Shown here: positions 5,332-57,050 of the stretch, in pieces | Numbering within the stretch: the stretch's first letter is position 1 | Layout: the number at the start of each line of letters is the position of its first letter | The notes under the pieces: generated by a model | What the model was told of the DNA's origin: nothing | The model's input: the letters and a program-made list of their open reading frames with translations, nothing else | Databases searched by the model: none | Program-made: the position numbers and the translations under genes | Source: Eledone cirrhosa | Taxonomy: Eukaryota | Assembly: GCA_964016885.1 (NCBI GenBank) | Contig: OZ024741.1 | Location: 53,878,001 to 53,942,000 of the forward strand | DNA length: 64,000 nt | Direction of reading: 5' to 3'

Positions 5332-5424
5332 TTATATAACGAAGGAGTTTTGGTAAGGAACCAGATGGACCATAATGCACCAGAGTACTCAATACTTAGG
5401 GTAGTAGAGTGGGCAATAGGAAAA

Positions 5425-6525: not shown

Positions 6526-6987
6526 AGCATTTCCGTTATGTCAGACTTTATTACGAAGTTATTTAAACGACTTCTTAAAACAGCCTTTTAGGCTATATGT
6601 CCCTTCTCTATTTTCAACGGAATTATTTTTCGCCTACTTCCTCTGGCCTAGTTTCATACACAATCTTTAGAATTTGCTGTATAGATTTCACTTTCAACGC
6701 TTGACCAGCTCAAACCACACCCTCATTGTTCTACAGGCAAGTTCAGCCAGCCCCACCTCCCACCCACTGCCATGATAGACTTAATTGTGTTTACAAGAAA
6801 TGTTGACCAATCGTCTTGACAACTACAATCTTCCCATATAAGGAATTACCCCTTGTAAAGTTAGGCTATTTATGTACCACGCTAAAAATTCTAATTTAGT
6901 ACAGAAATAGCCGTCGAAACGGCTTGAGCTCTGCCGTCGGGGTCATACATTTCCCTATATTTCATATATTTTTATATCTGTATATCT

Positions 6988-7175
6988 GTTTGACCCGAAA
7001 TAGGAGATCGAATCTTCGCTGTGTGGATAATTAGTTTAACCACCATCTCAGTGTGTTTGGCCTTTAACGTAAGTTGTAAGCTCTAATTCATTTGAATTAT
7101 AGAGTGCTTGCCTCACAATTCGAAAGTGTTTTCTCGTTATTTCATGGGCTGAAATTCGATTCTCGCTAATTTTTA

Positions 7176-7178
<3 letters not shown>
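6988..7178 (+). ncRNA. Unassigned conserved structured motif, copy A, in a (TA)n-flanked element end
   Basis: Homologous to 45802-45998, 31014-31090 and 53340-53414 with conserved stems and variable loops. Confidence 0.5.
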
Positions 7179-7399: not shown

Positions 7400-9589
<2,190 letters not shown>

Positions 9590-10148: not shown

Positions 10149-10877
10149 CATACACACGACGTACGCACACACATACATGCGTCTTTTGGAATTTAATCAT
10201 TATCTGGGGGGAATCGTCTAATTTACGTCATCGTTACACATTTAATGCAGCTGAATGCGAAGAATTATCTCTTACTGATGAAAACCTATTTACTATAAAT
10301 TTGTCCGTACTCACCCTATATATATATATATATGTGTGTGGGGGTATGTATGTATGTGTGTATGTATGTGTGTATGTGTGTATGTGTTTGTGTTAAGTAA
10401 GTGCTCAACTAAAGCTACAGGTATTTGGCCGTTCAGAGCACTCGATATTGTTACAATGGTTCGTCTCATGTTCGGTTATAGTCCAAGGTTAGAGCAGCTG
10501 TAAGCTGTAGAGTGTAAATAAAGTAAGCCTGTTCGAGTTCAATGTTACATCATATATGTGAATTTTATTGGCATATTACAATCGTTTCAATATAGTTTAG
10601 CTCAAGTAACACTCATGACTGGAACCCGATATGTCTCCACATCCCATCAGTTTGAATGTGGTTTTGCATATATAAACTCGCATATCTATTTACTTTGATG
10701 TCCCGACGTCGCTGAGTAATCGCTGTATTTGAACATTATGAGAAATCTCAGCTCATCAGAGAACTTCTGAATCAAGACAAATTCTTTGTCCACCTACTGT
10801 CACACTTCTGTTGACCGTCGATCATGAGATAATTCTTCCGTTCGAAATTGTCCCTGGTAGCGGTTCAAGCATCTTGG

Positions 10878-15181: not shown

Positions 15182-15224
15182 GTCACTGAAGAGATCACAG
15201 AATGTGTGACGAAAGAACTTTGAC
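15182..15224 (+). ncRNA. Minimal type I hammerhead ribozyme in PLE pseudo-LTR
   Basis: gtca-CTGAAGA-g(a)tcaca/tgtgac-GAAA-gaac-TT-tgac: stem I gtca/tgac, intact core, 1-bp stem III as in PLE minimal HHRs. Confidence 0.75.
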
Positions 15225-15514: not shown

Positions 15515-15785
<271 letters not shown>

Positions 15786-18006: not shown

Positions 18007-18220
18007 TAAGGTTTGTTGGTTCACCACTGGATAGAACTGGTCATTCCGTATGGTCAATCCTGGTGTAATATTGTGAAGAGTACTCAACGCAGTGCAGTTC
18101 ACCCATCTTTGTTTGTGTAGTTGGTGGTGCGAATACGGAGTTAACTATAAATGAAATAACAGGAGGCTGGACTGGTTTTTCGGACCCATGGCTTTTTACA
18201 TATTCCTTTCTTATATTCCA

Positions 18221-24160: not shown

Positions 24161-24229
24161 TAAATAACTAATAAGCTCTGTAACCTACATAGAGCTCACT
24201 TTTTTCCTGTACCTTTCCGACGGAAATAC

Positions 24230-30676: not shown

Positions 30677-30679
<3 letters not shown>

Positions 30680-31152
30680 TAATTTATTCCTTTGTTCAAA
30701 TTTTGAATTTGACCGCCAAAACCGAGGGTTACCTCCCTTCGGGAATACCACGTGACTACTGGCCGTGTTTACTGCTAATATTCACAAACGGAGCAGGATA
30801 GAAGGAAAACTTGTTGACGAAGTAAATTCCACTGTTCTATCTTCCAAAACCAATAACTTGCAGGCCCCTGCAAGTGGATTTTGTTGATTTCGGATTTACA
30901 GAAACATAGCGGAGATATTATATAATATCAACACGATGGTCCAGGTTTGTCATATTTTCTTGAGTCAGTTTTTTTCGTTGCTTTGGTCACTGCGGCTCGC
31001 TTATCAGTCGCTGTCTTCAATTTGCAAAGCTGTCTAAACGTAATGTTATAACTCTGGGGTAATATACCTTATTGAGTGCTTAGCTGCACATCCCGATTGT
31101 ATTGGCTAGCTTAGCAGCAGCCGGAGCTTCGATTATGCTGTACTAACTTGTG
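30677..31152 (+). mobile_element. (TA)n-inserted non-coding element carrying structured motif copy C
   Basis: Colinear with 53180-53481 (gaataccacg, tgatttcggatt, gtccaggt, cttcaatttg, ttattgagtgctt, agcttcgatt); (TA)n on both sides. Confidence 0.65.
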
Positions 31153-31177
31153 TATATATATATATCTATATATATAT

Positions 31178-31287
31178 ATTAAAATAACAGATTAAAGTTT
31201 AAGCAAAGAATCGCTGCTTTACACCCTTATCCTGTTAAGGATGAAAGCAGCGATTCTTTGCTTAAACTTTAATCTGTTATTTTAATA
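31178..31287. repeat. Fold-back palindrome of the 19090-family terminus
   Basis: attaaaataacagattaaagtttaagcaaagaatcgctgcttt..aaagcagcgattctttgcttaaactttaatctgttattttaat. Confidence 0.85.
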
Positions 31288-31388: not shown

Positions 31389-31576
31389 GGGCGGTGGATT
31401 GGCAGTATCGGTAGAGGGTCGGACGCCATGCTTTCCAGCATAGTTACGTCCCTTTATGATCTGAGTTCAAATCCCGCCGAGGTTGACTTTGCCTTTCATC
31501 CTTACGGGGTCGATAAAATAAAGTACCTGTAATGCACTGGATAGTTGCTGGCCTTGTGCCTAAAGTAGAAACAATT
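31389..31576 (+). mobile_element. SINE family 1, full length
   Basis: Near-identical to 18818-19007. Confidence 0.9.
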
Positions 31577-31623
<47 letters not shown>

Positions 31624-33359: not shown

Positions 33360-33420
33360 TTTTGTCTGATGAAGGCATACCATAATTTAATGTGGTATCC
33401 CTGAAATATGTATAATGAAA
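33360..33420 (+). ncRNA. Type I hammerhead ribozyme near the end of a pyrimidine-rich element (32976-33462)
   Basis: ttttgt-CTGATGA-agg.ataccata/tgtggtat.cct-GAAA-tatgta-TA-atgaaa. Stem I is weak (two GU pairs). Confidence 0.6.
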
Positions 33421-33461
33421 TAAATATGGTTTTATAAATATAGTTTCCATTTATTAATATC

Positions 33462-33527
<66 letters not shown>

Positions 33528-33695: not shown

Positions 33696-34084
33696 TGAGT
33701 TGAGATGGAGGGTCTGTGGTTTTTCTCACATCTGGTTGGTCTCTGAATGTTACTTGTTTTATATGGAAAAAGTGGCTCGAAATGCCAGGTTTTTCGAGAA
33801 GTAATTTGATTGGTTTGTCAATAATTATAATAAATTTCGCGCCAGTTCGCGTTACAATAGTTCCTCAAATAAGAGGGGGGGGGGGGTTGTCACAGGTTGT
33901 TTTTTCATATATGAGTGTTTGAATTTCTTTTTACTTGAAAAAAGGAGGCTCACGAAGGCTGTTTTTTGGTTGGTTATAAATGAAATTATGGCAGTCACGT
34001 GAACAAATTTTCATTAAATGTTTGTGCCCTTATTTGGAAATCCATTCTGTAGCCTTTTTAGAGAATTTTTTGATAAGTAAAAGA

Positions 34085-34480
34085 TAATTGTTTCTACTTT
34101 AGGCACAAGGCCAGAAATTACCCAGTGCATTACTGGTACTTTATTTTATCGACCCCGTAAGGATGAAAGGCAAAGTCAACCTTGACGGGATTTGAACTCA
34201 GATCGTAAAGGGACGTAACTATGCTGGAAAGCATGGCGTCCGACCCTCTACCGATACTGCCAATCCACCTCCCTTGTAAGGGATAAGTAAAAGATAATTG
34301 TTTCTACTTTTAGGCACAAGGCCAGCAATTATCCAGTGCATTACTGGTACTTTATTTTATCGACCCCGTAAGGATGAAAGGCAAAGTCAACCTCGGCGGG
34401 ATTTGAACTCAGATCGTAAAGGGACGTAACTATGCTGGGAAGCATGGCGTCCGACCCTCTACCGATACTGCCAATCCACC
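34085..34480 (-). mobile_element. Two tandem SINE family 1 copies (34085-34272, 34295-34480)
   Basis: Both match consensus; each is preceded by gataagtaaaagataat. Confidence 0.9.
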
Positions 34481-42533: not shown

Positions 42534-42589
42534 ACTGCTATATATATTTCGATGATAGCCATTGAATGGCTATGACCTCATCAGGCAGT
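42534..42589 (-). ncRNA. Type I hammerhead ribozyme, intact core
   Basis: Minus strand actgc-CTGATGA-ggt.atagccat-tca-atggctat.atc-GAAA-tatata-TA-gcagt: 5-bp stem I, long stem II, palindromic stem III; ~45 nt from a (TA)n tract. Confidence 0.8.
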
Positions 42590-45337: not shown

Positions 45338-46098
<761 letters not shown>

Positions 46099-52430: not shown

Positions 52431-53117
52431 TAAAGCGATGAAATGCCTGGGACGGTTGGAGGGTCACTGATGAAGGACTCACTTTTTCATATGTATCCCA
52501 TTTGCAACGCCGCAGCTCCATTATTATCATATTTACACATATATTTTTTCCTCTGCTGCCACCCGTCTGTTTCGTTCTTTGTATCTTTACCCTTTCTAGC
52601 AGTCTCTCTCTCTCTGTTAGCCTCTTCCTCAACTTTCACTCACTCATACCCTGTCACTGCCTCTCCTCCTCTCCTCTTTCTTCCCGCTTGACCTGTCCGA
52701 TTTCTTTTCTCGCGCACTCTTGGCCAAGCCGGTATGAAATTTTTTTTCGCTCTCTCTCTCGTCTGCGTCTTCACAGAACTTATGTTTACCGAATTCACAG
52801 ACCAGACCCCTTCTTCTTCCCCCCCCCCGTTAGACCTGTGCGAAATTCCTTCCTCGCTCACATTTCAACCAGGTTTGATGGTCTTTATTCTCTAGTTCAC
52901 GGTTTTATCGAGTTTATATTCATAGAAATCTGGGACTTGTCTCTTTCTTCTCACTTTCTGTTGCCTAAACCATTTTGTTTGTTCACCCTAACGTTCTCTT
53001 TATTTACGCGTCCCAACGACTTTTTTTAGCCGTTGTTCGCACCAACCTGAGGTATATGGCCCTTAAAGCGATGAAATGCCTGGGACGGTTGGAGGGTCAC
53101 TGATGAAGGACTCACTT

Positions 53118-53125
<8 letters not shown>
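52430..53125 (+). mobile_element. 633-nt pyrimidine-rich non-coding unit with 63-nt identical terminal direct repeat (retrozyme-like or PLE partial tandem)
   Basis: 52430-52492 equals 53063-53125; ends in (TA)n; contains permuted hammerhead strands. Confidence 0.7.
53042..53107 (+). ncRNA. Candidate non-circularly permuted hammerhead ribozyme
   Basis: aggtaT-A-tggccct / taaagcgat-GAAA-tgcct / agggtca-CTGATGA: stem III aggtat:atgcct, stem I tggccct:agggtca, extra helix ccaacc:ggttgg. Confidence 0.65.
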
Positions 53126-53149
<24 letters not shown>

Positions 53150-53152
<3 letters not shown>

Positions 53153-53478
53153 GATGAAATGAATCTTCTGTTCGATCATGGAATACCACGAGCGTGCCTG
53201 TTACGTAGGTTGGATAACTGATTTCGGATTCATAGAAACACTTCAAACGTATATCGTGTGACTTGTCCAGGTGTATCTTTTTAACCTGTTAGTATTTCCG
53301 TTACTTTGGTATAGTGTGGTTAGGTTTGGCCTACGACAATCTTCAATTTGTCAAGCTATTTAAACGTATGTTATTACTCTAAGGACCTACGCTTATTGAG
53401 TGCTTTGCTAACTCATTCATTTTGTAGGTCGACTTTGCTTGCCCACAGCCAAAGCTTCGATTTTACTAAGCTTCGACT

Positions 53479-53481
<3 letters not shown>
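53150..53481 (+). mobile_element. (TA)n-inserted non-coding element carrying structured motif copy D
   Basis: Colinear with 30744-31152; (TA)n on both sides. Confidence 0.65.
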
Positions 53482-53558
<77 letters not shown>

Positions 53559-56625: not shown

Positions 56626-56688
56626 AATAATAATAATAATAATAATAATAATATGTCAGATAGACACTCGGCATATATCTCAGAAACA

Positions 56689-57050
56689 ATAATTGTTTCT
56701 ACTTTAGGCACAAGGCCAGCAATTACCCAGTGCATTACTGGTGCTTTATTTTATCGACCCCGTAAGGATGAAAGGCAAAGTAAACTTCGGCGGGATTTGA
56801 ACTCAGATCGTAAAGGGACGTAACTATGCTGGAAAGCATGGCGTCCGACCCTCCACCGATACTGCCAATCCACCGCCCTTAAATAATTGTCTCTACTTTA
56901 GGCACAAGGCCAGCAATTACCCAGTGCATTACTGGTACTTTATTTTATCGACCCCGTAAGGATGAAAGGCAAAGTCAACCTCGGCGGGATTTGAACTCAG
57001 ATCGTAAAGGGACATAACTATGCTGGAAAGCATGGCGTCCGACCCTCCAC
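56689..57050 (-). mobile_element. SINE family 1 dimer (56689-56878, 56883-57050) within one TSD
   Basis: cagaaacaataat at 56681-56693 and 57050-57062 flanks both copies. Confidence 0.9.

Follow-up and report, generated by a model that had tools for sequence, protein, structure and literature searches.

The window analysed here, 64,000 nt of the Eledone cirrhosa genome (contig OZ024741.1, positions 53,878,001 to 53,942,000), contains four copies of a diverged non-coding repeat, all on the + strand. Copy C (30678..31152, +) is a 5'-truncated monomer of a 588-nt non-coding unit and is flanked by two (TA)n tracts. Copy A (6958..7178, +) and copy D (53151..53482, +) are also 5'-truncated monomers, of units of 624 and 618 nt, respectively, and copy B (45340..45999, +) consists of a partial tandem (about 45340-45388) and one full unit that ends in (TA)n. 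An earlier note on this DNA had described four cores that fit one degenerate pattern, and the pattern indeed matches the + strand at exactly four places: 7046-7112, 31014-31085, 45865-45934 and 53340-53409. No fifth place was found in the window even with 4 substitutions tolerated, and 100 shuffles of the window searched with the full pattern gave no match. Two sub-patterns have 1,209 and 927 exact matches in the animal's own 3.0-Gb genome and none in reversed controls. The four-core observation is real, and not an artefact.

The copies represent dispersed families, A through D, for which a first look returned 1,250 (A), 5,285 (B), 3,772 (C) and 2,912 (D) candidates; 40 candidates were scored per family, and the totals are not copy numbers. 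The family of copy A is young, its best matches being 97-99% identical. Natural partial tandems gave units of 588, 588, 614, 615, 618 and 624 nt that can be aligned lengthwise, with a pairwise identity of 71-76% where blastn aligns them. The right end has a fixed position against (TA)n; the left end varies, being truncated, duplicated or in some cases inverted. Units follow one another head to tail in partial tandems, forming arrays of about 1-2 units at the loci seen. The (TA)n-type ends, truncation and tandems match the anatomy of Penelope-like elements (PLEs) as given in the accessible text of Craig et al. (2021, PMC8557442), and we consider it very probable that A-D are PLE-type non-autonomous repeats. 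The proposal of a diverged, (TA)n-inserted non-coding family with a covarying RNA structure is borne out by this unit anatomy and by the covariation described below. The longest stop-free run in the A-D units is 55-84 aa, and a tblastn search with PLE proteins found no match in them. The window is enriched for A-D, since 200 kb of other genome stretches gave one solid match.

Several searches bear on what else these units might be. ARAGORN found no tRNA in 8 of 8 loci, in a search to which degenerate A/B boxes would be invisible; no relatives of the elements were found in viral contigs, and three sequencing runs (one of DNA, two of unrecorded kind) showed related sequence only. A 3.9-kb repeat at locus L081 was considered as an autonomous element and is really a segmental duplication. 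A palindromic CACGTG / CACATG(TG) block occupies the homologous place in all four units (L076:1920-1935, L053, L015, and window 30749-30754 and 45593-45598) and could be a kissing loop or a DNA E-box.

The core of copy C contains a bulged hairpin, here termed SL1 (31051..31081, +), in which ACTC (31051-54) pairs with GAGT (31074-77), followed by the 3' flank GCTT. A U-A pair (31055/31071) and a further helix lie above this stem, next to a 2-nt bulge at 31072-73. The earlier note had read this part as a T, a variable hairpin and ATN; there is structure at that place, but it is really a continuing helix with a 2-nt U-N bulge. SL1 occupies 7080-7109 in copy A, 45901..45931 (+) in copy B and 53376-53405 in copy D. 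The 5' flank of SL1 in copy C (31014..31050, +) is family-specific and comprises TCTTCAATTTG, AGC and an AAC-loop-GTT element; it may mask the start site before SL1 that is discussed below. The consensus TCT(T)CARTKTG proposed for the beginning of this flank describes the four cores of the window but differs among subfamilies. A similar division applies to the pairings that had been thought to covary. The RCTC/GAGY stem does so, its outer pair being A-U in 11, G-C in 11, G.U in 1 and unpaired in 1 of 24 subfamily representatives, but AAC/GTT is near-invariant and so gains no support from covariation, and RGC/GCY reflects a single change between lineages A/B and C/D in an alignment judged by eye.

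Further structured or conserved segments surround the core of copy C. A covarying hairpin with G.U pairs on the + strand lies immediately 5' of the core (30992..31011, +), and a long-range helix (30975-30982 with 31125-31132, +) encloses it, two of its pairs changing on both sides between lineages. Farther upstream, a conserved TGATTT..AGAAAC block (30884..30905, +) lacks the canonical hammerhead core; it may be a decayed hammerhead or simply a hairpin, a fold that it can also adopt. Next comes a splice-donor-like GTCCRGGT block (30939..30949, +), with the donor-like boundary between GTCCRG and GT, near which the 5' ends of copies cluster. Of the upstream landmarks named earlier as colinear, tgattt..agaa and gtccrggt are homologous, but the three occurrences of aatacc (30744, 45643 and 53182) fall in non-homologous columns of the alignments. 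In 25 of 60 A-D copies the left end, as defined by alignment, belongs to a cluster 94-127 nt upstream of SL1 that coincides with the donor-like block; for copy C this site corresponds to window 30939-30960, where the donor-like site is held in a CRGG/CCYG hairpin. The cluster could mark an RNA 5' end, an RT stop or TA microhomology. The folding energy of copy C as it stands in the window is no better than that of shuffles (z -0.05), and an RNA across the tandem junction reaches z -2.4. To the right of copy C, a near-perfect inverted repeat lies in the TA tract (31172-31287), and its arm is also found after (TA)n at L011 and L025.

SL1 is one example of a more general motif, RCTC-Y..R-{UN}-GAGY-RCTY, which forms a 4-bp stem, a 2-nt bulge on the 3' side that begins with U, and an upper helix of free sequence and length. 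The motif followed by (TA)n has 79,040 forward-strand matches in this genome against 441 for the control (the reverse count is inflated by overlap). The outer pair, tallied over 216 instances in the vicinity of (TA)n, is A-U in 133, G-C in 66, G.U in 13 and A-C in 4, and the reversed control gave 6 matches. In 19 of 19 multi-copy clusters the bulge begins with U, and the distance between motif and (TA)n is 36-75 nt in 18 of these. The register with a 2-nt bulge pairs in 24 of 31 hand-picked representatives, as against 0, 2, 6 and 6 for other registers. When 22 of the 31 were aligned, 151 of 151 cells were paired, with changes on both sides in four of the seven pairs; the paired fraction is inflated by the selection of representatives, nine having been omitted, eight of them weakly paired above the bulge. 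Across 24 A-D representatives, 91.9% of cells are paired versus 84.6% in shuffles, an excess to which relatedness contributes, and two further helices covary. Variants with a 1-nt bulge or with GAGC-TATT are also present.

Three of the seven pairs, CUC/GAG, never vary and can therefore also be read as DNA sequence. This invariance, shared by the adjoining CT, would suit a motif that acts as double-stranded DNA, either as an internal promoter or as an endonuclease site in the element's own repeat, with the hairpin incidental. Penelope has an internal promoter in this region and needs its tail for endonuclease recognition, according to the accessible text of PMC8557442 and PMC11167929, and the two arms do amount to a spaced inverted repeat. 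Against a double-stranded signal stand the arms, whose spacing ranges from about 10 to more than 90 nt around an insert that is itself paired, the asymmetry of the bulge, and the four pairs that change on both sides, with G.U exceeding A.C on the sense strand. Moreover, insertion ends lie at a fixed distance 5' of each copy of the motif, in unrelated (TA)n targets. We regard the DNA reading as unlikely.

The core had been thought to sit where other (TA)n-inserted elements carry hammerheads, and hence to be possibly a new ribozyme. In hammerhead-bearing repeats of the same loci, however, the central stem lies 60-70 nt past an intact type I hammerhead; the pattern of a hammerhead followed by RCTC has 29,138 matches in the genome against 20 for the control, and the full motif was present in 27 of 30 such loci that were fetched. 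With the motif downstream of intact hammerheads, the core is not in the hammerhead's place. A-D themselves are another matter: no canonical hammerhead core was found upstream of the A-D cores in 108 copies, where AGAAAC is kept in 77 and the donor-like GTCCRGGT in 63. When the whole genome was searched for hammerheads upstream of A/B cores, 40 matches resulted, and the 25 examined comprised 20 broken by (TA)n and 5 unrelated, heterogeneous chimeras.

A-D have spread without a canonical hammerhead core, and in no subfamily was one found intact; a new self-cleaving ribozyme replacing it could be sought in the extra helices around SL1, with the 5'-end cluster upstream marking a defined RNA 5' end. 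The conserved part nevertheless coexists with intact hammerheads elsewhere, occurs twice, and has insertion ends that map 5' of each copy. Its conserved bases are mostly helical and the single-stranded 5' motif varies, and the 5' ends cluster some 110 nt away from the core, at the donor-like block, where TA microhomology could explain them. No Rfam family matches at its gathering score; covariance models for hammerhead, HDV-like, twister, twister sister, pistol, hatchet and hairpin ribozymes gave no family match for A-D. At E<=5, Rfam gave sub-threshold matches only, mostly over (TA)n, with none overlapping the core of copy C and one overlapping the L076 core (13.4 bits against a cut-off of 35). 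It is unlikely that the four flagged copies represent a new ribozyme, and replacement of the hammerhead by one in A-D seems to us very improbable. Three other candidates were rejected. A hammerhead on the minus strand of the core was set aside because the G.U pairs favour the + strand and the stem II geometry fails. The AGAAAC and GTCC blocks fit the order of a hairpin ribozyme loosely (compared by eye), and neither helix 3 nor the partner strand of loop A is conserved; a resemblance to twister and twister sister, also judged by eye, did not stand up.

The motif tracks a particular group of PLEs. When 13 motif loci were extended by 7 kb, an upstream RT/GIY-YIG ORF on the same strand was found in 5 (L199, L200, L202, L207 and L208); in the remaining loci the ORF was in the inverted half in two, and none was seen in six. 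The proteins of the upstream ORFs carry, by eye, the RWR, DKT, WFAPP/WFNPP and CxCx5C motifs of the Hydra-clade description, and the features of a Hydra-clade RT with a C-terminal GIY-YIG were likewise met by eye in the ORFs of the H1, H2 and H3 relatives (the family labels H1-H5 and E were coined in this analysis). Searches of Pfam and PDB with the Hydra-type proteins gave no match. Other TA-inserted PLE families are without the motif. A regular-expression search of 30 loci of a Neptune-type family gave no same-strand motif, and a Neptune-type parent for A-D was set aside on this ground; model matches there (L210 and L227) are on the opposite strand. A young Neptune-type family (L214-L239) contains many open frames 700-1,000 aa long, and its end resembles a hammerhead without being canonical. 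A Naiad parent is unsupported as well: the (TA)n target and the missing hammerhead would fit A-D, but the N-terminal GIY-YIG ORF is absent and the motif tracks Hydra ORFs instead.

Published Hydra consensi extend the association to other phyla. By eye, and within the visible ends of six consensi (~600 characters each), the motif is present in three and as a variant in one. A hammerhead precedes the motif in Hydra-2_Amil and Hydra-2_Ajap, the motif occurs twice ahead of the ATG in Hydra-1_Ajap, and the start of Hydra-1_Crog has a variant in which one pair is changed on both sides; the presence of the motif in Hydra-1_Amil is doubtful, and the visible ends of Hydra-1_Obim do not show it. Hydra-clade PLEs as described in the accessible text of Craig et al. 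(2021, PMC8557442) resemble A-D in their (TA)n targets, partial tandems and optional tail, and in the bulged hairpin found in repeats both of this genome's Hydra-clade elements and of the published consensi; A-D differ in having neither an ORF nor a canonical hammerhead. The same paper does not, in the text accessible, describe the bulged hairpin motif, and the word 'hairpin' is absent from its main text. Five A-D motifs had no match in the accessible part of its supplement, where line breaks may hide some. Metagenomes searched for a hammerhead accompanied by the motif yielded 12 loci, falling into 7 sequence groups and all selected for having both; the 11 inner bases left free by the pattern close >=3 pairs in 9 of the 12, against 5.6% of random 11-mers, and Hydra-like ORFs accompany 4 of the 12. 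One metagenome contig (L250:120-2318, -) carries an apparently complete Hydra-type ORF with a hammerhead, SL1 and SL2 upstream.

SL2 is a second copy of the hairpin, seen across the junction in every family examined. Like the tandem unit and the Hydra-clade link, it was absent from the earlier note. In A-D, across 26 distinct junctions, it lies 6-8 nt past the junction of TTG with TA; its outer pair is U-A and its insert measures 75-91 nt. The stem was fixed by the regular expression used; past it, the next two pairs form in 22 and 24 of the 26 and the fourth in 13. Copy B provides an example in the window (45400..45499, +), TCTC..{TC}GAGA-GCTT with a long insert, 6 nt past a tandem junction that joins TTG to TATTAA; copy C has no SL2 because the first ~120 nt of the unit are missing. 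In 10 of 15 H1 loci, SL2 stands 18-20 nt ahead of the ORF ATG and follows the usual insertion end by 6-9 nt, the other five being chance matches, and the same order of SL2 before ORF is found at L243, L250 and L252. SL1 and SL2 thus flank the insertion end in A-D, H1, L243, L250 and L252.

Insertion ends fall about 6-9 nt 5' of SL1 or SL2, with those of family B up to 14 nt from the hairpin, where TA overlap blurs the end. Counts of ends 5-9 nt before SL1 versus copies that read through are 28:23 in H1, 30:20 in E, 4:6 in H2, 3:5 in H3 and 4:7 in H4, and H1 genome-wide has 8,960 ends before SL1 versus 8,831 copies reading through. For the first 40 H1 ends before SL1 on contig C1, a read-through partner within 5 kb points outward in 24 cases, inward in one and along the same strand in two, the chance expectation being 0.004 per site. 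These counts and partners indicate that H1 insertions typically terminate before SL2 on one side and, in inverted orientation, before SL1 on the other. The window itself contains an SL1-side end of this kind, in an H1 copy (33366-33462, +) that has an intact hammerhead and a (TA)n end 7 nt before the expected SL1. A-D behave differently: no end before SL1 was found among 21 in the examined loci, family C has 5 SL1-start sites versus 855 read-through copies, and families A/B have 9 SL1-start sites. SL1 is conserved in A-D yet the start before it is hardly used, and a simple rule of one hairpin, one start leaves this unexplained.

The position of SL2 just ahead of the ATG, the donor-like block kept upstream of SL1 and, as far as the accessible literature describes them, PLE leaders with an intron across the repeat boundary would together suit hairpins that regulate how the 5' leader is spliced or translated (intron retention as against mRNA), the link to insertion ends being secondary. 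That A-D keep both hairpins without an ORF speaks against this, as do the two distinct insertion ends, each with a hairpin 6-9 nt 3' of it, and we hold the leader reading to be quite improbable. The twin hairpins at insertion ends instead lend support to the other role that had been suggested for the core, that of an RT-recognition structure. We think it probable that each hairpin positions the RT, binding a Hydra-clade enzyme and fixing the start just 5' of itself.

How this might work is suggested by reading the end maps beside results for the Poseidon element PAc of Anolis (Frangieh et al. 2024, PMC11167929). In the accessible text of that one in vitro study, reverse transcription begins internally, at two sites, one at each boundary of the tail; cutting and extension affect both strands of the target; the reaction needs RNA 3' of the start but, in vitro, no hammerhead cleavage; the protein is predicted to be a dimer; and a protein-binding motif is inferred but left undefined. 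PAc differs in belonging to the Poseidon clade and in initiating inside an AC-rich stem-loop in the ORF, and a clade-wide twin hairpin is not reported in the text accessible. By analogy, an RNA spanning the tandem junction would present SL1, the spacer and SL2; SL2 exists only across the junction, and the template would therefore be tandem or circular. The enzyme, if dimeric like its Poseidon-clade relative is predicted to be, would nick (TA)n on both strands, one cDNA being primed before SL2 and another before SL1. The product would have one end with a 'tail' (SL1 plus spacer) and at its other end an inverted, tail-less copy. A-D would have dropped the ORF and the ribozyme and kept both hairpins, and the almost exclusive use of the SL2 start would yield direct partial tandems. 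More speculatively, the SL1 start may be hidden by the helices around SL1 that are specific to A-D and account for most of the core first described.

A-D likely hitchhike on a Hydra-clade RT-endonuclease. The analysis turned up no autonomous element whose ends are of the A-D type, and the mobilising enzyme is assigned here by the shared motif. The missing parent, together with direct tandems in place of inversions and an SL1 start that is hardly used, could point to another enzyme (a Neptune-, Naiad- or Poseidon-type PLE, or a LINE), the motif being only inherited. Yet the four lineages, 70-76% alike where alignable, all retain the two hairpins, with compensatory changes, A-D ends lie at the Hydra-typical distance from SL2, and the Neptune-type loci lack a same-strand motif. 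Mobilisation by an enzyme outside the Hydra clade therefore has, in our judgement, little probability. Returning to the Hydra-clade reading, we would tentatively, and at somewhat less than even odds, take it further: the pair of U-bulged hairpins found from corals and echinoderms to Eledone would be an RNA ruler of Hydra-clade PLEs, and A-D ribozyme-free parasites that fold extra helices over the first start. A dimeric RT-endonuclease would clamp both hairpins and start two cDNAs 6-9 nt 5' of each, the two starts would create the tail and the inverted end, and the helices over the first start would turn inverted insertions into the direct tandems of A-D.

Non-autonomous derivatives of PLEs are known from other lineages. 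Non-LTR retrozymes of animals (Cervera and de la Pena 2020, PMC7229834; Li et al. 2026, 10.64898/2026.07.22.740005) are, like A-D, non-coding, tandem and PLE-derived, and the A-D unit falls within their reported size of 51-972 bp; in the accessible texts their defining feature is that every unit carries a type I hammerhead, a feature absent from A-D as known here from genomic DNA. Elements of Chlamys such as MRC1, again from the accessible text of PMC8557442, are like A-D non-autonomous PLE dependants and belong to a mostly hammerhead-free group; they have pLTRs and head-to-tail copies, but differ in belonging to a green-algal clade and in using other targets. Because such derivatives (retrozymes and MRC1) are known, we count the element type as a variant of them: Hydra-linked and without a canonical hammerhead. 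No description of the twin hairpin was found in the literature searched, a scope that left out Repbase/Dfam notes, bioRxiv supplements and subscription papers.

Bulged stem-loops are known to recruit RTs in other settings, as in hepadnavirus epsilon and the 3' stem-loops of LINEs and SINEs, where a short bulged helix is read by the enzyme and fixes the start. The hairpins of A-D and Hydra elements differ from these in that two copies flank the start region, and they have no Rfam match. Penelope-like RTs are the closest relatives of telomerase RT, and the issue here is how they pick their template and internal starts. Genomic ends alone point to a 13-base RNA element in two copies that predicts both start sites within a few bases, across phyla, making the choice of start site testable on short templates. 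The motif is also diagnostic for the annotation of ORF-less repeats, and A-D indicate that PLE dependants without a hammerhead can spread in an animal genome.

Other repeats in the window touch on the same theme. Two back-to-back bulged hairpins precede a CA/TA tract at 10400-10495 (-), where the second uses the RCTY flank of the first as its 5' arm, an arrangement that may show how the RCTY flank arose. An abundant fold-back family, E, is represented at 5384-5410 (-), 9466-9509 (+) and 15518-15561 (+) and by a fragment at 6780-6957; it has SL1 and both types of end, a canonical hammerhead was not seen in three loci, and it is possibly another ribozyme-free dependant. Motif-bearing ends before (TA)n, one H4-like and one of a long-insert type, lie at 24167-24207 (+) and 18070-18149 (-). 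Hammerhead cores or fragments of other TA-inserted families are found at 42547-42584 (-), 15186-15214 (+) and 53100-53120 (+), the last adjoining the tract to the left of copy D. Finally, tandem pairs of 211 and 194 bp at 34072-34480 and 56688-57050 consist of a repeat that is also present at 31450-31580 and that may be a SINE-like family.
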